A stretch of DNA of 64,000 bases from Deltaproteobacteria bacterium (GTDB lineage Bacteria; Desulfobacterota; Syntrophobacteria; BM002): assembly GCA_020353155.1 (NCBI GenBank), contig CP070689.1, positions 3,105,299 through 3,169,298 of the forward strand. Direction: 5' to 3'. The position numbers and the translations under genes were made by a program. Numbering within the stretch: the stretch's first letter is position 1; every line of letters starts with the position of its first letter. This document shows positions 2,631 to 37,631 of this stretch, piece by piece. Below the pieces are notes generated by a model that worked only from the letters and a program-made list of their open reading frames with translations, did not search any database and was not told the DNA's origin.

Positions 2631-3416
2631 ATGAAAATCGCGACGTGGAATGTGAACTCCATACGGGTACGGCTGGAAGCAGTCTTGAACTGGATAGACC
2701 AAGAGCAGCCAGACGTTCTTTGCCTACAAGAAATAAAGGTAACAGATGAACTGTTTCCCGCCGAACCGTTTGAGGCTCTCGGCTATCAAATAGCCGTCAG
2801 CGGGCAAAAAACCTACAACGGGGTTGCCATCCTCAGCAGGTACGAGGTCACCGAGGTTCTGGCAGGATTCCCTGACTATGATGCCGAAGGGCAGAAACGG
2901 TTAATTGCCGCAACGGTGGGCCGGGTGAGGGTGGTGAACGTCTATGTTCCTAATGGTTCAGCTCCCGATTCCCCTAAGTTCATCTATAAGCTGGAATTCA
3001 TAAAGCAGCTAAGTAATTATATGGAACGGTTGCACCTAATTGGAGAGAACCTGGTTTTAGTTGGAGATTTTAACATCGCTCCCGAACCTCGCGACGTCTA
3101 TGATGCCAAAGAGATGGAAGGTGAGATTGGCTTTCACCCCGAAGAGCGGTCCGCCCTGGCAGAATTAAAGAATTGGGGATTTGAGGATGTCTTCCGCCGA
3201 CACCATGAGGAAGGTGGTCTTTATAGCTGGTGGGACTATCGGGCTGGCGCCTTCCGCCGTGACCTGGGTTTGAGGATCGATCACATCTGGGCTTCACCGC
3301 CCCTGGCTTGTCTAAGTCTGGAATGTTCCATGGACAAAAAGCAGCGTTCTCTGCCCAAGCCATCCGACCACATTCCCGTCTGGGCCATCTTCGATCTTAG
3401 TTGGCATAGGGCATAG
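2631..3416 (+). CDS. xth: exodeoxyribonuclease III
   Basis: MKIATWNVNSIRVRL...LCLQEIK...DHIW...SDHIPV are classic ExoIII/AP-endonuclease motifs. ATG at 2631 is preferred over the TTG at 2622 used by the track. Confidence 0.9.
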   Translation: MKIATWNVNSIRVRLEAVLNWIDQEQPDVLCLQEIKVTDELFPAEPFEALGYQIAVSGQKTYNGVAILSRYEVTEVLAGFPDYDAEGQKRLIAATVGRVRVVNVYVPNGSAPDSPKFIYKLEFIKQLSNYMERLHLIGENLVLVGDFNIAPEPRDVYDAKEMEGEIGFHPEERSALAELKNWGFEDVFRRHHEEGGLYSWWDYRAGAFRRDLGLRIDHIWASPPLACLSLECSMDKKQRSLPKPSDHIPVWAIFDLSWHRA

Positions 3417-3543
3417 AGCATGGAGCATAGAGTAAGGAGCCAGGTTTCAGTGTTCAGGTTTCAGCCTTTTTGTTTTTTTCCCTGACACCTGAAACCTGAC
3501 ACCGTGGAAATTGGTGCCTAGTGCTTAGTTCCTGGTGCCTAGT
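3404..3543. repeat. word-array hairpin (GCATAGAG array | CAGGTTTCAG array | T-rich loop | CTGAAACCTG array | GTGCCTAGTGC array)
   Basis: Arms at 3441-3464 and 3482-3502 are complementary, and the outer arms are tandem 8-mers. The first words overlap the last three codons and the TAG stop of xth. Confidence 0.7.
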
Positions 3544-4858: not shown

Positions 4859-6253
4859 TTACTTCCCAAGGCAAAATTGGCTGAAGATTTGATCCAGCAA
4901 ATCCTCAGTAGTGGTCAAACCAATAACCTCTCCCAGGTTAGCCAAGGCCTCCTGTACTTCCAGAGCAATCAGTTCGGCTGAAGATTGGCTGTCGAGAAGC
5001 TGCAAAGCCCGATTCACTGCCTCAAGACTGCGCTCGAGGCAGATCTTGTGGCGCAAGTTGGGGGCTACCACTGAAGTCTCTGTGTCCAGTCTTCGACCTA
5101 GTATGGTATGGAAAACGGCGTCCTTCAACTGTTCCATACCGTCACCATGGAGGGCGGAGATTTCAACTAATGTCTCTTCCGGAAAGCGGTCACCGATGGC
5201 GCCAAAATCTGGATGAGGATCTAGATCGATCTTGTTTAAAACGACAACTCTGGGCTTGCTGTCAATGTCTTCATAGATCTTCAAATCTTCCGAAGTCAGC
5301 GAGCTACTTCGGTCCAAAACGAAAAGCACCAGATCAGCTTGGGACAACCGCTCTCTGGTGAACTCCATACCTAGTTTTTCCACAAGATCGTCCGGTTGGC
5401 GCAGGCCAGCAGTATCCACCAGCCGCAGTGGAATTCCTCTGAGACTCAGGCTCTCTTCAATAACATCACGGGTAGTGCCGGGAACGGGAGTTACCAGGGC
5501 ACGGTTGGAGCGGAGGAGATTATTGAGGAGGCTGGATTTTCCAACATTTGGTTTGCCAGCGATGATAACAGACAAACCCTCTCTTAAGATCCGACCGTCC
5601 TCGTAATGGTCTAACAGTCTGGTTATGGGCTCTTTGACCTGCTGGCGCACCCGAGTTGAAAGGTCTGTTTCTGAAAGAATTTCTAAATCTTCGTCTGGAA
5701 AGTCGATGGCAGCCTCTACCATGGCCAAGGTCTCCAGCAGATGGCTGCGCAGTTCTGTAATTATAGTTTGCAGGCCCCCTTTTAGGTGTTCGCTGGCAAG
5801 ATGAAGGCTACGTCTAGTTTTCGAACTAACCAGGTCCAAGACTGCTTCCGCCTGGGTCAAATCGATACGCCCATTCAAGAAGGCCCGCCGGGTGAACTCG
5901 CCGGGTTCAGCCAGCCGTGCACCAGACCGAATTACCAATTCGAGAATGCGGTCTAGCACGGCGAGGCCGCTGTGACAATTAATCTCGACAACGTCTTCCC
6001 GCGTATAAGTTGCCGGCCCGCGCATGAAGCTCACTAGCACTTCGTCTACGGTCTTATCAGTTCCAGGCTCAAAAATGTGGCCGTGATAGAGGTGGTGAGA
6101 TTGTATGGCTTCCGGGGATCCAGACAGGTGAAGGAGATGGCGGCCCATGGCCCAGGCCTCAGGGCCGCTGATCTTTATAACGCCGATACCACCAGTTCCT
6201 ATGGGGGTGGCTATGGCGGCAATGGTATCCTCTAGGGGTTCACAGACTTTCAT
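4859..6253 (-). CDS. mnmE: tRNA modification GTPase MnmE (TrmE)
   Basis: 464 aa. G-domain GKPNVGKSSLLN, DTAGLR, NKIDL, and C-terminal ...CLGK motif. Confidence 0.95.
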   Translation of the reverse strand: MKVCEPLEDTIAAIATPIGTGGIGVIKISGPEAWAMGRHLLHLSGSPEAIQSHHLYHGHIFEPGTDKTVDEVLVSFMRGPATYTREDVVEINCHSGLAVLDRILELVIRSGARLAEPGEFTRRAFLNGRIDLTQAEAVLDLVSSKTRRSLHLASEHLKGGLQTIITELRSHLLETLAMVEAAIDFPDEDLEILSETDLSTRVRQQVKEPITRLLDHYEDGRILREGLSVIIAGKPNVGKSSLLNNLLRSNRALVTPVPGTTRDVIEESLSLRGIPLRLVDTAGLRQPDDLVEKLGMEFTRERLSQADLVLFVLDRSSSLTSEDLKIYEDIDSKPRVVVLNKIDLDPHPDFGAIGDRFPEETLVEISALHGDGMEQLKDAVFHTILGRRLDTETSVVAPNLRHKICLERSLEAVNRALQLLDSQSSAELIALEVQEALANLGEVIGLTTTEDLLDQIFSQFCLGK

Positions 6254-9760: not shown

Positions 9761-9902
9761 AGATGTGAGATGTGAGATGTGAGATATGGGATTGCAGATT
9801 TGGGAATAAAGAAATTGCGGGATTAGGGAATTGAGGAATTAGAAAATTAGCAGATAATGCTTCCTTTTTCTTAATCCCTGAATTCCAGAATTCCTTAATT
9901 TC
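9761..9902. repeat. word-array hairpin (GAGATGT x3, then GATTGCA/GATTTGG, then GGAATTG-type words | loop | complementary AATTCC-type words)
   Basis: 9761-9850 contains only 2 C in 90 nt, and 9861-9910 contains only 2 G in 50 nt (hand count). The words drift gradually from one family to the next. Confidence 0.75.
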
Positions 9903-9911
9903 TTTTAATTT

Positions 9912-16344: not shown

Positions 16345-16593
16345 AGATGTGAGATATGAGATGTGCGATTTGAGATTGCGGATTTAGGATTGCAGATTGA
16401 TTGCCACATGGCACACAGCGCAGAGCGCATGATACATGACGGGAGGTCGGGCGAGACGAGCGAGACGGGATTAGTAGACGGCGGACATAAGTTACATAAT
16501 TTTGGATTTAGAATTGCGGAATCGGCTTTTTACTCTATGCCCTATGCTCTATGCCCCATGCGAAATCCCACATCCCACATCCCATATCATATC
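16345..16593. repeat. large nested word-array hairpin (GAGATGT | GATTGCGGATTT | CATGGCAC/GCGCAGAG ... centre ... GGATTTAGAATTGCGG | CTCTATGCCCTATGC | CCCACATCCCACATC)
   Basis: Outer left arm 16345-16375 is complementary to 16565-16593. Segment 16407-16431 is partly complementary to 16534-16560. The right end abuts the nadB stop codon. Confidence 0.75.
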
Positions 16594-19428: not shown

Positions 19429-19493
19429 AGGCACTAAGCACTAAGCACATTTTAATTTCACATTTTTCATTGCGCATTTCTCATTTTACATTT
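19429..19493. repeat. word arrays (GCACTAAG x2, then CATTTTTCATTGCGCATTTCTCATTTTACATTT)
   Basis: Two different word families are juxtaposed with no local complementary partner. The element lies between the HAD gene and the 19507 gene. Confidence 0.6.
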
Positions 19494-20388: not shown

Positions 20389-20663
20389 CCCTTGGTCGTG
20401 CTAGATGGGGAGTTAGCGGTGCCCTGTAACCCGAAATCCGCTTATGCGGGATTGAATTCCCTGCAGAGAGTTACAGTTAGACCGGGGCCTGTCTGTGCTT
20501 GTTGCTGATTGGACACCGCGCAACAAACGGATACGAACCCCGTCAGGTCCGGGAGGAAGCAGCGGTAAGTATTGCAGTTTGTGTCGTGGTTACCTCTGAT
20601 CAGAGCTGCAACGCGGACGGTCCATGGGAAAGCTGAGCCCGAAGTGGGGTGCACGACCAAGGG
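20389..20663 (+). ncRNA. ffs: signal recognition particle RNA, long (Alu-domain-containing, Bacillus/archaeal-like) type
   Basis: Domain IV motif GTCAGGTCCGGGAGGAAGCAGCGGTAAG at about 20543-20570. 5' Alu-like motifs GGTGCCCTGTAACCC and GATTGAATTCC. A perfect 13-bp terminal helix joins 20389-20401 (cccttggtcgtgc) and 20651-20663 (gcacgaccaaggg). Confidence 0.85.
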
Positions 20664-20677
20664 TTTCTTCTATCTTA

Positions 20678-20704
20678 CCGCTGAGATCGCAGAGTACGCA
20701 GAGC
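20678..20704. repeat. left arm of the inverted repeat bracketing the GxxExxY gene (CGCAGAG-type words)
   Basis: ccgctgagatcgcagagtacgcagag matches the reverse complement of 21097-21122 at 20 of 26 positions (hand alignment). It ends 2 nt before the gene's stop codon. Confidence 0.7.
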
Positions 20705-20706
20705 TT

Positions 20707-21096
20707 TTATTCCTCAAGGTTCAAAACTAACCTGCGTATTCCTTTCCTAAGAACTTTTACATTAAAATTAAGCAATAATCCGACTTGGCAGCCGGAAAGC
20801 TTTAGATATGACAACAGCTGTGCCTCGTGTATCGGCTGCAATCTATCAACTGTCTTTAGCTCCACTATCACTTGTCCCTCTACAAGCAAATCCAACCGAT
20901 ACCCGCAGTCGAGTTTAACGCCTCTGTATCGCACTGGCATCGCCTTTTGTTGTTCCACCGCCAACCGACGTTCGGCCAGTTCGAAAGCCAGGCATGCCTC
21001 GTAGGCCGACTCCAACAAACCAGGCCCTAGTGCTTTGTGAACAGCCATCGCTGCACCGATGATAGCCTCTGTAATGGTATTTATATCTTTTGCCAT
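20707..21096 (-). CDS. GxxExxY-family protein (PD-(D/E)XK nuclease-like fold)
   Basis: 129 aa. [13 protein letters not shown] (GxxExxY), then D...E.K-like [16 protein letters not shown], and the typical C-terminal [19 protein letters not shown]. Confidence 0.85.
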
Positions 21097-21122
21097 CTCT
21101 GCGCCCTCACCGCTCTCTGCGG
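21097..21122. repeat. right arm of the inverted repeat bracketing the GxxExxY gene
   Basis: ctctgcgccctcaccgctctctgcgg starts immediately after the start codon (21096) and ends 14 nt before the mazG stop. Confidence 0.7.
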
Positions 21123-21136
21123 TAATTCCTCAGGCT

Positions 21137-21907
21137 TCAAATTTCCCAGAGCGCTCTCTCTTCTTCCTTGGAAAGGTCCGGCCAGTCTTTTCCATTACTG
21201 ACAAAATTGGCTTCTATTTTCTCAATTTGGTTACAGAATTTTTCCATGGCCCCTGTAAGAGCTTCCTCTGCCCGAATCCCTGCGGGGACTGTAAGGGCCA
21301 CTAGGAGGAGCAGGAGCCTGCCAAGGTCGGCCGTGACCGCAGAGGCATCATTTTCGCCCTCCTGCACTAATAATATCGAAAAAGATCGGTGCAGTTCAGA
21401 AAGTAGGACCTCCCGGCTAAGGGGACGTTTCAATGTCCGGCCCAGTCGGGAAAGCATTCGGTATGCCCGCATGAGAGCGGGAAGTGCGCGTGGTATATCT
21501 TTGAAATTAGCACTTAGGGGCTTTTGTGGTTTTTCCTGCTGCTTAATCTCCTCCCAGTTGAGCTTGACCTGGCTAGCGGAATCTACCTTGCGATCCCCAA
21601 ACACATGGGGATGTCGACGCACCATTTTGTCGCCCACCCTGCGAAGTACCTGGTCCATCTGGAACTGCCCTTCTTCGCCATAGAGATGGGCTAGAAAAAT
21701 CGCCATGAAAATTAGATCGCCGAGTTCGTCAGCAACCTGATCTGGAGCTTGATGATCCACCGCATCTACAACTTCATAAACTTCCTCAAGAAGGTAGCGC
21801 TTAATGGTGGCGGGCGTCTGGTCACGATCCCAGGGGCAGCCATCCTCAGCCCGGAGTCGAGCCATTAACTCCATCAACCCTTCGAACTCTTTACCTGTTT
21901 CAGACAT
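21137..21907 (-). CDS. mazG: nucleoside triphosphate pyrophosphohydrolase MazG
   Basis: Tandem MazG domains (CPWDRDQT, EEVYEVVDAV, ELGDLIF). ATG at 21907 is preferred over the 5' hydrophobic extension. Confidence 0.85.
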   Translation of the reverse strand: MSETGKEFEGLMELMARLRAEDGCPWDRDQTPATIKRYLLEEVYEVVDAVDHQAPDQVADELGDLIFMAIFLAHLYGEEGQFQMDQVLRRVGDKMVRRHPHVFGDRKVDSASQVKLNWEEIKQQEKPQKPLSANFKDIPRALPALMRAYRMLSRLGRTLKRPLSREVLLSELHRSFSILLVQEGENDASAVTADLGRLLLLLVALTVPAGIRAEEALTGAMEKFCNQIEKIEANFVSNGKDWPDLSKEEERALWEI

Positions 21908-22084
21908 AATGTCACCTTGAGCAATGATGAGTTGTAAAGATTTAATCACAAAGAGCACAGAGAATATCATATGGCCCAGGATGATCATATTGATTTTGAC
22001 TTTTTCGGGGGAGATTTAAAAAAATGAGAATCTGACAGGGGAAATGGCTTTGTAAACCATATGCTCCCGGGAGGCAGGGAGAGT

Positions 22085-22661: not shown

Positions 22662-22800
22662 GTCCGTTGTCAGTTGTCAGTTGGGTAAAAAAGAGAGCGA
22701 ATTGGGTGTGGAGCGCTAAAAAAAATGAGATGAATTCTTCTTAACGCGTCATCTCGTGGACATTAAGGGCAACTGACCACGGACCATGGACAACTTACCC
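22662..22800. repeat. complementary word tracts (GTCAGTTG / GTCCGT / GGGTAA versus CAACTGAC / ACGGAC / TTACCC)
   Basis: The left tract (22662-22688) and right tract (22768-22800) share complementary words. Their order is not that of a simple hairpin, so only local stems of 8-10 bp are supported. Confidence 0.45.
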
Positions 22801-27449: not shown

Positions 27450-27486
27450 CACTGTCCGTTTTAGAAAACGCATAGCGCCTATAAAA

Positions 27487-27656
27487 CTAGGCACTAGGCA
27501 GTAAGCACTAAGCACTACAACTCGGAACGAAGAGCGGGGAACGCTGAATTATGGACAAAACTGATTGAAATTTCCAATGTCGAAACATTCCGAGTTTCTC
27601 GTTCCGAATTCCGCTTTATTTCCCTTGGTGTCTAGTCCCTAGTGCATAGTGCCTAG
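27487..27656. repeat. word-array hairpin (GCACTAGG/GCACTAAG array | CGGAAnn array | centre | complementary TTCCG array | CCTAGTGC array)
   Basis: Hand alignment of the outer 32 nt (27487-27518 against the reverse complement of 27625-27656) gives 24 Watson-Crick pairs, 2 G.U and 6 mismatches. The inner arms are complementary tandem CGGAA words. Confidence 0.8.
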
Positions 27657-27717
27657 TGAGGACGGCTCTGTGCTCTAAGCGTCTTTGAAACACAAACACT
27701 GATTGGAGGTGAGAGGC

Positions 27718-30412: not shown

Positions 30413-30545
30413 GTCATTTCCCATTTTGCATTGCCCATTTCTCATTTAACATTTCTCATCAATGTGAATTTGGACAGATGACTCTTGTACTGAGTTGATA
30501 ATGATAAATGATGAATGACCAATGAGAAATGAGAAATGAGAAATG
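30413..30545. repeat. word-array hairpin (CATTTCTC-type array | centre | GAGAAATG-type array)
   Basis: The left arm 30413-30460 has 3 G in 48 nt. The right arm 30498-30545 has 2 C in 48 nt. The period-7 array AATGAGA x3 contains the tsaE start codon. Confidence 0.8.
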
Positions 30546-31048
30546 AACAACCTCTCCTAAGGTGGACTACCCAGACATTAAGCCCTGAAGCAACTCAGTC
30601 TCTTGCCGAGCGACTGGGAAGATTGCTCCGGCCAGGTGATGTAGTTGCCTTGATAGGTGAGTTAGGAAGCGGTAAAACCGTTTTCTCTCAAGGCCTGGCT
30701 CGCGGCTTGGGGGTGCCGAAGACTTTCTATATTACCAGCCCAACCTTTGCCATCATAAACGAGTATCCTGGTAGAGTCCCCTTTTATCATCTGGATTTAT
30801 ATCGAGTGAGCGGTCCTGGCGAGTTGTCAGAACTGGGACTTGAGGAAATTCTTTACGGGCAAGGGGCAGTGGCAATTGAATGGGCTGAAAGACTAGACAA
30901 AGAATTGCCAGCGGAGCGGCTGGAAGTCCACTTGACATTTCTGAACGAAATGGGAAGAAATATTGCCTTCTCTGCATTTGGAGACAAATTAGAAAAGCGA
31001 CTGGCCACACTCGTCAGCTTTTATAAAAGCGCCAACGAGAGAAGCTAA
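30536..31048 (+). CDS. tsaE: tRNA t6A37 biosynthesis ATPase TsaE
   Basis: GELGSGKT Walker A, SPTFAIINEY, and YHLDLYR motifs. Confidence 0.9.
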   Translation: MRNEQPLLRWTTQTLSPEATQSLAERLGRLLRPGDVVALIGELGSGKTVFSQGLARGLGVPKTFYITSPTFAIINEYPGRVPFYHLDLYRVSGPGELSELGLEEILYGQGAVAIEWAERLDKELPAERLEVHLTFLNEMGRNIAFSAFGDKLEKRLATLVSFYKSANERS

Positions 31049-32595: not shown

Positions 32596-32674
32596 AGATG
32601 TGGGATGTGAGATTTGAGATGCGTGATGGTTAATTTTCCAAAAAAATGTTAAATCCCATATCGCACATCTCACA
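32596..32674. repeat. word-array hairpin (GATGTGGGATGTGAGATTTGAGATGCGTGATGG | loop | AAATCCCATATCGCACATCTCAC)
   Basis: Complementary GAGATGT/ACATCTC arrays lie directly after the lysC stop. Confidence 0.7.
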
Positions 32675-34443: not shown

Positions 34444-35025
34444 ATGAATTTTCTTTCCCGGTCTCAACCCGGCGCTGTTTTATTGGTGGCACTCGTTCTG
34501 CTGTCTGTCTACAGCTTGAGTCACCATACCCAGCATGGCAAGTCGAGAAAATCCACTGAAGTCTCCGCGAAATACATCTTTATCCAGGTGGTGGGCAAGG
34601 TAAAAAGTCCGGGGATATACTGCTTCGATCAAGGGGTTACAGTAGGTGAGGCGTTAGCTCGGGCTGGAGGACCACTGTCATCGTTAAGTCACGGCGACGA
34701 ATTGACATGGGCTAAAGTTCAAACACTAAACGGCAGCAGAATTCAAATTATAACTGAGCCAAGGGGAGTCGCCGTTTTGAAATTGGGGTGGATGGCGGTG
34801 CCCATCCGCCTGGCTTTAGGGGTGCCACTGGATATCAATCAGGCCTCTGTAGCTGATTTGACCCAAGTGCCTGGCATCAATGACGAGTTGGCGGATAGGA
34901 TTGTGGCTCTGAGGGTACGTAGGGGGGGATTCTCCAAATTAGATAGTCTTTGCGAGGTAAAGGGTATAGGGCCGGCCACGGTCAGGCGGCTCAAGCCCTA
35001 CCTTGCACTAGGCACTAAGCACTAG
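34444..35025 (+). CDS. comEA: ComEA-family helix-hairpin-helix DNA-binding protein
   Basis: Signal/anchor, SLBB-like region, and C-terminal HhH pair (INQASVADLTQVPGI...VKGIGPATVRRL). Confidence 0.85.
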   Translation: MNFLSRSQPGAVLLVALVLLSVYSLSHHTQHGKSRKSTEVSAKYIFIQVVGKVKSPGIYCFDQGVTVGEALARAGGPLSSLSHGDELTWAKVQTLNGSRIQIITEPRGVAVLKLGWMAVPIRLALGVPLDINQASVADLTQVPGINDELADRIVALRVRRGGFSKLDSLCEVKGIGPATVRRLKPYLALGTKH

Positions 35026-35073
35026 GCACCATGCACCGCGGAGCAGGCAGCGAGCAGCGGACAGCAGGCAGTA
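35005..35073. repeat. word arrays (GCACTAGG/GCACTAAG x3, then GCAGGCAG/GAGCAGCG-type words)
   Basis: The first 21 nt encode the last six residues (ALGTKH) and the TAG stop of comEA. No local complementary arm. Confidence 0.65.
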
Positions 35074-37447: not shown

Positions 37448-37602
37448 TTTCTCATTTGTCATTGCGCATTTGTCATTGCGCATTTATCATTACACATCGC
37501 AAATGATTTTGCTGATGTCGTTCTAATTAAATTCGCAATCCGAAATCGGGAACCCGCCCGAAGGGTGGGAGTCCGAAGGACAAATTCAGAATTCACAATT
37601 GC
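37448..37602. repeat. word arrays (CATTTGTCATTGCGCATT x2-3; AATCCGAAAT / AATTCAGAATTCACAATTGC) flanking a GC-rich core hairpin
   Basis: The core is cgaaatcGGGAACCCGCCCgaaGGGTGGGAGTCCgaagg at 37541-37580. It shares the 10-mer GGGAACCCGC with 18325-18334. Confidence 0.7.
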
Positions 37603-37631
37603 AGAAACAATGGATATTTAGAGGGAAACCG

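Follow-up and report, generated by a model that had tools for sequence, protein, structure and literature searches.

A GxxExxY nuclease gene lodged in a heptamer-word hairpin between mazG and the SRP RNA gene: a candidate mobile cassette common to many phyla

Among described systems, the open reading frame (ORF)-bearing intervening sequences (IVSs) of 23S rRNA genes come nearest in geometry to the element reported here, and the REPIN-RAYT systems (REPIN, hairpin-forming doublet of repetitive extragenic palindromes (REPs); RAYT, REP-associated tyrosine transposase) come nearest in logic. The Coxiella 23S rRNA IVS measures 428-444 nt and carries an ORF in the loop of a 28-bp stem; such IVSs are sporadic and horizontally acquired, and have been proposed to be mobile elements whose ORF aids mobility (PMC4990558). 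The element in question is a 451-nt cassette (20675-21125) in a 64,000-nt stretch of a Deltaproteobacteria bacterium genome (contig CP070689.1; the whole stretch analysed is hereafter called the window). In this cassette, a 129-aa ORF of the GxxExxY (PDDEXK_3) family sits between two inverted arrays of short tandem words, in the spacer that separates mazG from the gene for the signal recognition particle (SRP) RNA, ffs. The GxxExxY family appears in the literature as one of unknown function that has undergone multiple lateral transfers (PMC3424549). A literature search on GxxExxY, PF13366, TIGR04256 and CACAGAG hairpins found no account of a gene-in-word-hairpin architecture, and the unit looks like a kind of mobile cassette not described before.

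The original prediction had likened this locus to ORF-bearing intervening sequences, a comparison that is apt in size and shape (PMC4990558): as in the IVSs of Coxiella, Leptospira and Salmonella, the ORF fills the loop, here within 451 nt and between arms of 29 nt. Unlike a 23S rRNA IVS, however, the cassette occupies the mazG/ffs intergenic spacer rather than an rRNA helix, its ORF encodes a PD-(D/E)XK nuclease instead of a four-helix-bundle S23p/Avd-like protein (PF05635), and its arms are tandem heptamer words common to many phyla. With REPIN-RAYT systems it shares an enzyme gene flanked by an inverted repeat that is also dispersed as gene-less hairpin doublets, the occurrence of singlets, doublets, clusters and nested insertions, and an extragenic location (PMC3116915, PMC3337134). 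Gene-less inverted doublets of the cassette words (consensus C-R-C-N-R-A-G) were found in other genomes and in metagenomes; the 64-kb window contains none. The differences from REPIN-RAYT are several: the cassette enzyme is of the PD-(D/E)XK type and not an HUH/Y1 IS200/IS605-like protein; three heptamers in an array take the place of the single REP palindrome; word consensus and protein are cross-phylum rather than species-specific; the GxxExxY gene is itself housed in the hairpin and subject to gain and loss; and it is neither single-copy nor vertically inherited, being patchy at a mazG synonymous divergence (dS) of 0.12 and present twice in one metagenome-assembled genome (MAG) of Chlamydiota.

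At the window locus, the cassette and its surroundings comprise the following features:

20707-21096, minus strand: GxxExxY / PDDEXK_3 ORF, 129 aa, filling the hairpin loop
21097-21125, minus strand: 5' arm, 29 nt, abutting the ATG; word-array score 17/18
20675-20703, minus strand: 3' arm, 29 nt, starting 3 nt past the stop codon; word-array score 18/18
21126-21136, minus strand: left host flank AGCCTGAGGAA, separating the 5' arm from the mazG stop; putative copy of a target-site duplication
20665-20674, minus strand: right host flank GATAGAAGAA, adjoining the outer end of the 3' arm; second GA(A/G)GAA copy
20396-20656, plus strand: SRP RNA (ffs; Rfam RF01854, 152 bits), convergent neighbour outside the cassette
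21137-21910, minus strand: mazG, upstream co-oriented neighbour; stop codon at 21137-21139

A repeat search recovered the two arms (20675-20703 and 21097-21125) as inverted sequences 393 nt apart and complementary at 23/29 positions (79%). Each consists of three C-R-C-N-R-A-G heptamers with a 9-nt period. Read in gene sense, the 5' arm is TTACC-GCAGAG-AG-CGGTGAG-GG-CGCAGAG and the 3' arm is CTCTGCG-TA-CTCTGCG-AT-CTCAGCG-GTAA, the complement of the latter being TTACC-GCTGAG-AT-CGCAGAG-TA-CGCAGAG. The predicted bracketing of the gene by an inverted repeat was borne out; its flank-inverted-repeat score (14) was the highest among 58 non-overlapping window ORFs, the next best scoring 8. C-R-C-N-R-A-G arrays scoring 17-18/18 occur in the window as the two cassette arms only, over a background maximum of 15; the bare word CGCAGAG, with 13 matches versus 8 expected, is not significantly enriched across the window. 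Several details of the original prediction could be checked at this resolution. The 26-nt arms that it had aligned do match at 20/26 positions, and the upstream arm indeed touches the ATG; the downstream arm, in turn, begins 3 nt from the stop codon and not 2. What had been taken for tandem 8-mers are heptamers at a 9-nt period, and the SRP RNA, previously thought to end at 20663, is placed by Rfam at 20396-20656.

Comparison of the mazG/ffs spacer among relatives revealed both filled and empty alleles (amino acid identities and dS of mazG are relative to the window):

Window: mazG reference; GxxExxY cassette
L007: mazG 84% aa; cassette with conserved arms
L008: mazG 76% aa; cassette with conserved arms
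L010: mazG 70% aa; cassette with conserved arms
L352/L353: mazG 92% aa, dS 0.12; empty, 16-nt spacer AGCTGAAGAAAAACCC before the SRP RNA end
L341: mazG 74-76% aa; empty, 19-nt spacer
L344: mazG 55% aa; empty, 14-nt spacer
L340: mazG 85% aa; TGGAGTAA-word hairpin without a gene
L354: mazG 86% aa; TCATTTA-word hairpin without a gene

The cassette thus entered a spacer of 14-19 nt between convergent mazG and SRP RNA genes, the latter being present in the relatives as well. The closest relative of the window (L352/L353) has a clean empty site, and both mazG clades contain filled as well as empty lineages. In one further lineage without the gene (L343, mazG 67% aa), a spacer of ~95 nt is followed by a masked stretch, and the SRP RNA junction is not confirmable. 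Inspection of this spacer in relatives had been proposed along with the original prediction; the filled relatives keep the arms, and the presence/absence polymorphism at one site in close relatives fits the small selfish cassette that was suspected there. As the empty alleles are devoid of arms, the arms must have arrived with the gene.

The left flank AGCCTGAGGAA copies the spacer AGCTGAAGAA of the empty allele in L352/L353, and in the filled window allele the host spacer is interrupted, leaving AGCCTGAGGAA to the left of the cassette and GATAGAAGAA-ACCC to its right. The motif GA(A/G)GAA stands on either side of the cassette in the filled allele, whereas the empty one has a single copy; this is a probable, though diverged, target-site duplication. 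In total, filled flanks are 9-12 nt longer than empty spacers, and the right flank runs into an A-run complementary to the T-run of the SRP RNA terminator. With respect to timing, the dS of the cassette between the window and L007 (0.24) is close to that of mazG (0.32), so that the simplest history is one old gain followed by precise losses. Between L007 and L008/L010, cassette dS is 0.45-0.49, about half the mazG value of 0.97-1.19, which hints at exchange between lineages.

Two of these alleles carry gene-less hairpins of other word families: in L340 (3296-3402), four copies of TGGAGTAA are followed by CCCATTACTCCA, and in L354 (2296-2420) TCATTTA-type arrays are accompanied by their complement, each within the mazG/ffs spacer. 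With a mazG dS of only 0.09 between L340 and L354, the different hairpins argue that word hairpins turn over very fast at this site. Separately, the window contains a 17-nt direct repeat (20709-20725 and 21125-21141; 15/17 matches), in which the last GxxExxY codons TTTGAACCTTGAGGAAT are matched by a similar sequence, TTTGAAGCCTGAGGAAT, made up of host spacer and mazG stop. We rejected the idea that this is the remnant of a tandem cassette, as such similarity is not general across loci (7.4 vs 6.95 ± 0.9); it is chance or microhomology, given that the copy at 21125-21141 is ancestral host sequence present in the empty allele L352.

The same compact arm-ORF-arm unit, mobile on evolutionary time scales, is common to many phyla. 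A homologue survey of species-representative genomes yielded 80 loci with 54-74% protein identity from more than ten phyla, including Chloroflexota, Desulfobacterota, Planctomycetota, Acidobacteriota, Verrucomicrobiota, Bacteroidota, Cyanobacteria, Chlamydiota, Methanosarcinales and others; across phyla, archaea included, the proteins are 55-75% identical. The recurring flanks are (T/A)NACC plus three C-R-C-N-R-A-G words upstream and a complementary array ending in GGT(G/T)A downstream. To score bracketing, we required a forward array upstream and a reverse array downstream under a strict three-word score, both no more than 150 nt from the gene. Both arms were present for 44/77 GxxExxY genes, with a further 7/77 having the upstream arm only and 16/77 the downstream arm only, whereas none of the 162 other ORFs of the same loci was bracketed by word arms. 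Examples from cultured isolates are Bacteroides finegoldii, where the cassette lies between radA and the gene for a FAD protein, Bernardetia, where it lies between ade and a guanylyltransferase gene, and Sphingomonas, where it separates fabD from fabG. The Chlamydiota MAG with two GxxExxY copies is represented by loci L065 and L075. Four of the 79 surveyed copies are pseudogenes: in L021, L038, L075 and L043, the gene has an in-frame stop or frameshift with the arms still in place, i.e. these are decaying copies.

Several side observations concern the delimitation and the range of this design. Gene callers often run through the arms because the word arrays lack stop codons, which yields N-terminal FTAENAESAE-M and C-terminal SLRSPRSRR extensions (P0287, P0289, P0371, P0100); at the Sphingomonas locus (L347:395-823), the annotated ORF extends into the 3' arm, with its end only 2 nt short of fabG. 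Two distant GxxExxY genes are framed in another manner, one on a Fusobacteria ZRK30 plasmid (L348) by a 24-nt direct repeat CAGATTTAATCCGTGTACCTAT and one in Prevotella nigrescens (L349) by a direct repeat of ~60 nt containing ACAAATC words. In L059 (1240-1670), a gene for a PF05635 protein (23S_rRNA_IVP, four-helix bundle; E 5e-34) has on its two sides the arms of a word-like inverted repeat of 23 nt, GGTGTACGGTTTGAGGTATAAGG / CCCTACACCTCATACCGTAAACC, with 19/23 complementary positions. The hairpin-cassette design may extend to the IVS-protein family.

Across phyla, word positions 1, 3, 6 and 7 (C, C, A and G) are near-invariant, and positions 2, 4 and 5 differ between loci, giving variants such as CACAGAG, CGCAGAG, CACGGAG, CGCGGAG, CACAAAG, CGCCAAG, CACCGAG and CGCGAAG. 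Words recur every 8-10 nt, with purine-rich spacers of 1-3 nt. When a forward arm is aligned to the reverse complement of its partner, identity is 0.91 over words and 0.47 over spacers, versus 0.34 expected for the latter from composition. At the variable positions, identity between arms is 0.83 in register and 0.80 out of register, identity within one arm is likewise 0.80, and the values are 0.70 for other hairpins of the same locus and 0.54-0.56 for different loci. All six words of one hairpin are homogenised, a pattern that corresponds neither to classical stem covariation nor to a recent inverted duplication. Classical stem covariation was rejected specifically because in-register comparison did no better than out-of-register comparison (p = 0.13), and we detected no G-U asymmetry of the kind expected from strand-specific RNA selection (30 vs 24 in words; 24 vs 18 in spacers). 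A forward-then-reverse hairpin reads alike on both strands, so array polarity is uninformative as to gene orientation. Rfam scans returned the SRP RNA and sub-threshold matches to miRNA-like hairpins only, with no family covering the arms.

The word hairpin is far commoner without a gene than with one. Word arrays in the 80 GxxExxY loci exceed chance expectation ~100-fold, and loop lengths are bimodal: 39 pairs are less than 150 nt apart, and pairs at a distance of at least 350 nt enclose GxxExxY, except for a few distant pairings (L080, L086, L098); L068 has one gene-less hairpin with a 269-nt loop. Stretches matching the exact array pattern CACAGAGNNCACAGAGNNCACAGAG exceeded 120 in IMG/VR and likewise in the JGI metagenomes. 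Among the 120 metagenome matches listed, a sample unbiased with regard to the gene, we counted 70 forward-reverse pairs, which are gene-less and have unrelated loops of 7-212 nt, as compared to eight in the reverse-then-forward arrangement. The stems of these gene-less hairpins run 4-12 bp past the arrays in locus-specific complementary sequence. GxxExxY was present in 4/120 of the metagenome loci and was bracketed in 4/4. Gene-less hairpins avoid divergent spacers (3/40, versus 92/438 or 21% of adjacent ORF pairs in the background). We dismissed solitary arrays as 5' untranslated region or ribosome-binding elements, as they had no orientation preference towards gene starts (50 vs 52 of 150). 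In cellular loci, no gene other than GxxExxY was found in word-hairpin loops.

Exact arrays of three CACAGAG words are common in viral contigs (L100-L219 from IMG/VR, e.g. L123:9556-13341, L140 and L111/L112), often with several per contig and beside other word arrays (CTTAAAA, TATCCAG, AAATCGn); the placement of three unannotated phage ORFs between arrays is probably fortuitous. Hairpins are nested in L201 and L138, and local tandem copies occur in L068, L098 and L326. The nested cases (L201:633-796, 1729-1810 and 5214-5386; L138:1774-1900) consist of a CACAGAG hairpin inside the loop of a CGCAAAG or CACGAAG hairpin, and in L201 the nested unit is present three times. The window itself is rich in intergenic tandem 7-nt word arrays (>14), many of them inverted pairs and some nested (1994-2140, 3404-3543, 9761-9905, 16345-16588, 19431-19493, 22662-22791, 27486-27658, 30414-30546, 32596-32674, 35000-35037 and 37448-37606). 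Each of these pairs has its own word (ACTAAGC, AGATGTG, TCATTTC, GCACTAG and others), repeated with a period of 7. The original prediction had likened the cassette arms to these hairpins in design and proposed a MITE-like relationship (MITE, miniature inverted-repeat transposable element). Arms and window hairpins are unrelated in sequence and period, sharing just the overall design and, through the word hairpins of L340 and L354, the mazG/ffs site. The proposed relationship is plausible within the C-R-C-N-R-A-G family, whose gene-less hairpins are abundant, but finds no support in the sequence of the 7-nt hairpins of the window.

The encoded protein is a clear member of its family. The ORF matches PF13366 (PDDEXK_3; E 1e-44, 152 bits, cut-off 22) and TIGR04256 (GxxExxY; E 2e-46, 157 bits, cut-off 35), and these were its only profile matches, with neither an HUH transposase nor PF05635 among them. 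It contains the eponymous motif (G26-L-L-E29-S-A-Y32) and a PD-(D/E)XK triad composed of D69, E79 and K81. In alignments A1, A2 and A3, comprising 20, 58 and 144 sequences, D69 is invariant throughout, K81 varies in A2 alone (where it is at least 90% conserved), and E79 is at least 90% conserved in all; G26, E29, Y32 and E33 are also invariant or at least 90% conserved. An AlphaFold2 model built with 144 sequences (mean predicted local distance difference test, pLDDT, 87.9; predicted template modelling score, pTM, 0.82) adopts a restriction-endonuclease-like alpha/beta fold, whereas 20 sequences gave a pLDDT of 44. Searching with this predicted model, Foldseek retrieved small viral PD-(D/E)XK nucleases (template modelling score, TM, 0.72-0.76; E 6e-9), Cas4 SSO0001 (probability 0.99, TM 0.51), LHK-Exo and lambda exonuclease (E 4e-3) and, more weakly, Hjc and tRNA-splicing endonucleases; PADLOC reported a weak Cas4 resemblance only. 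No sequence match of the protein was found in the PDB, PHROGs or GenBank phages. The cassette protein has thousands of homologues at 70-99% identity, and GxxExxY/PDDEXK_3 as a whole comprises 23,209 clusters at 50% identity (E <= 1e-3). Within the family, two-domain fusions of 270-295 aa (P0400-P0408 and others) have a degenerate E-x-K in the second domain. These are pseudo-dimers with a single active site, which suggests a dimer to be the working unit of GxxExxY.

Both the protein and its arms are under purifying selection. Among filled lineages, the ratio of nonsynonymous to synonymous divergence (dN/dS) of GxxExxY is 0.07-0.15, and the p-distance of the arms is 0.05-0.10, versus a proportion of synonymous differences (pS) of 0.21-0.61. 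The 3' arm shows 0-2 differences in 29 nt among four lineages, and the outer and inner words of the 5' arm are invariant in L007, L008 and L010. Neighbouring genes are mostly co-oriented with GxxExxY, both upstream (54/74) and downstream (53/72), at median gaps of 82 and 66 nt, respectively. Neither a promoter-like nor a terminator-like site was found between mazG and GxxExxY at the window locus, where mazG, judging from this arrangement, is the likely source of read-through transcription of the cassette. In the predicted fold of a 472-nt transcript, the arms pair in the minimum free energy (MFE) as well as the centroid structure, with an overall z-score of only -1.5. As an aside on the neighbour, relatives and the NCBI record have a mazG start (256-257 aa) that lies 26 codons inside the longest ORF (283 aa); the additional N-terminal stretch (window 21911-21988) is probably not translated.

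Beyond IVSs and REPINs, the cassette shares features with several other types of element. Similar to MITEs with their autonomous terminal inverted repeat (TIR) transposons, and to the ends of Tn7 and Mu with their multiple subterminal binding sites, it has terminal inverted repeats made of several repeated sites, short gene-less derivatives outnumber the gene-bearing form, and a short flanking duplication is probable. In contrast to these elements, it encodes no DDE or other recognised transposase, its sole ORF being the 129-aa PD-(D/E)XK nuclease, the loops of gene-less copies are unrelated to GxxExxY and the target-site duplication is weak. Homing endonuclease genes can be free-standing or intron-borne, and one of their products, I-Ssp6803I, is a PD-(D/E)XK enzyme. 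The cassette resembles them in that its nuclease ORF is small, is present or absent at a single precise site, spreads laterally and is occasionally a pseudogene, but differs in not residing in an intron or intein. Moreover, the arrival of the arms with the gene at a hairpin-less site means that simple homing into an empty allele does not explain the locus. Since empty alleles lack arms, the homology for homing repair would have to come from mazG and ffs. An integron gene cassette was rejected, the arms lying on both sides of the ORF and the neighbours being mazG and ffs. Finally, cyanobacterial STRR-type (short tandemly repeated repetitive) arrays consist of tandem intergenic 7-nt words, often as inverted pairs. 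The other 7-nt word hairpins of the window are alike, whereas the cassette uses different words and a period of 8-10 nt. We know of no gene associated with STRR arrays.

The account that we favour, and to which we give roughly even credence, regards the cassette as one copy of a widespread, horizontally moving, promoter-less unit whose nuclease probably reads the words. The original prediction had offered action of the GxxExxY protein on such structures as an alternative, and it is this possibility that we prefer. A dimeric nuclease would recognise and cut at the repeated words of the two arms, whether these are present as duplex sites or as a snapped-back hairpin, and this activity would drive gain of the cassette. 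The filled unit would represent the autonomous form and the gene-less hairpins its non-autonomous, MITE/REPIN-like relatives, and loss would remove the hairpin precisely, through deletion from one short flanking duplication to the other. Once transcribed within a host message, the arms may pair and loop out the insert as in an IVS; we propose that cassettes would thereby be tolerated in operons such as fabD-fabG and be expressed by read-through. A wider version holds word hairpins to be an unrecognised class of mobile DNA in bacteria, archaea and viruses, with GxxExxY as its minimal mobilising nuclease and the 23S rRNA IVS as a special case with another passenger. Such a class would be the non-HUH counterpart of REPIN/RAYT, with the enzyme gene riding in the hairpin loop. 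We consider this wider version possible, yet tentative, and lean against it for now.

A number of observations weigh against the favoured account. The link between protein and words is one that we infer, and as arrays exist without the gene, another enzyme could act in trans. To our knowledge, no PD-(D/E)XK nuclease on its own is a transposase. The window holds a single GxxExxY copy, and the target-site duplication is short and diverged, with six identical bases and 6/10 matches overall. Long vertical retention together with strong purifying selection would also fit a host-beneficial gene. Among distant family members (35-43% identity), two are associated with direct repeats and one with an 11-bp inverted repeat. 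No vehicle was found: GxxExxY is absent from 1.02 Mb of array-rich IMG/VR contigs (among the matches listed) and from GenBank phages, and is present in only 8/72,556 plasmids. Lastly, the lack of G-U asymmetry and the barely complementary spacers mean that a selected RNA stem is not demonstrated.

The main rival, unlikely in our estimate, has the hairpin moved in trans by another enzyme or by host replication and repair, with GxxExxY as a passenger that is kept for a benefit to the element or the host, e.g. in repair, defence or addiction. The rapid turnover of gene-less word hairpins at mazG/ffs keeps this explanation open, for there other word families enter the spacer without a gene, and L340 and L354 carry different hairpins at a mazG dS of only 0.09. 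It would also accommodate the vast excess of gene-less over filled hairpins and the arrays in viral contigs devoid of GxxExxY (both among the matches listed), as well as the nesting of hairpins. It leaves unexplained, however, why GxxExxY is the only gene in such loops among cellular loci and why the word consensus is kept across phyla alongside a very conserved protein, and no candidate trans-acting enzyme was seen. Improbable, in our view, is a domesticated REPIN/RAYT-like system, in which a host-retained GxxExxY protein maintains cell-serving word hairpins under mainly vertical inheritance. Purifying selection on protein and arms and the location of hairpins downstream of genes would suit it, as would the parallel with RAYTs, whose genes are likewise flanked by a repeat that recurs elsewhere as inverted doublets without a gene (PMC3116915). 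Vertical inheritance is nonetheless at odds with 55-75% protein identity between phyla including archaea, with patchy presence even at a mazG dS of 0.12 and with the pseudogene copies; the window has no gene-less hairpin of this word family, and RAYTs are HUH enzymes that are typically single-copy (PMC5581495).

We judge it quite improbable that the arms serve expression only. Here, the long-range stem would be cut by RNase III or stabilise the message, and a promoter-less mRNA would thereby be released from the operon of the host or insulated from it; GAGG-like ribosome-binding sequences would come from the 5' arm, and the gene-less hairpins would be ordinary mRNA stabilisers or terminators. 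The predicted pairing of the arms in both MFE and centroid structures, the packing of a promoter-less cassette into operons, the rarity of gene-less hairpins in divergent spacers, the purine-rich spacers and the likeness to the geometry of RNase III-processed 23S IVSs (PMC4990558) are all consistent with such a role. The fine structure of the arms is not: G-U strand asymmetry is absent (30 vs 24 in words), spacer complementarity is near-random and pairing in register is no better than out of register. Nor would it account for the single cross-phylum word consensus, for block-wise gain and loss, or for solitary arrays that lack an orientation preference towards gene starts. As for coincidence, i.e. 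the arms being two of the genome's many word arrays that happen to flank a short gene, the >14 intergenic word arrays of the window might seem to invite it. Yet no other array in the 64 kb belongs to the word family of the two arms, relatives that have the gene have the arms conserved as well, and the same bracket recurs in 44/77 homologues across phyla as opposed to 0/162 control ORFs. The uniqueness of the arms and these counts refute this reading, and we attach next to no weight to it.

We regard the unit as a selfish gene for a nuclease, linked to a hairpin repeat that is dispersed; there is a fair chance that it forms a separate class. GxxExxY/PDDEXK_3 is a very large family with no assigned function and almost no literature, and the present findings give it a concrete candidate substrate, namely a conserved heptamer array in hairpin form. 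They also define a repeat family that ranges from gut Bacteroides to methanogenic archaea and is absent from Rfam, and they provide a tractable model for promoter-less selfish genes that settle harmlessly in operons, as between fabD and fabG or after radA. Word-hairpin cassettes may further explain the origin of rRNA intervening sequences, and a minimal nuclease that reads sequence in this way would, if true, be of practical interest.

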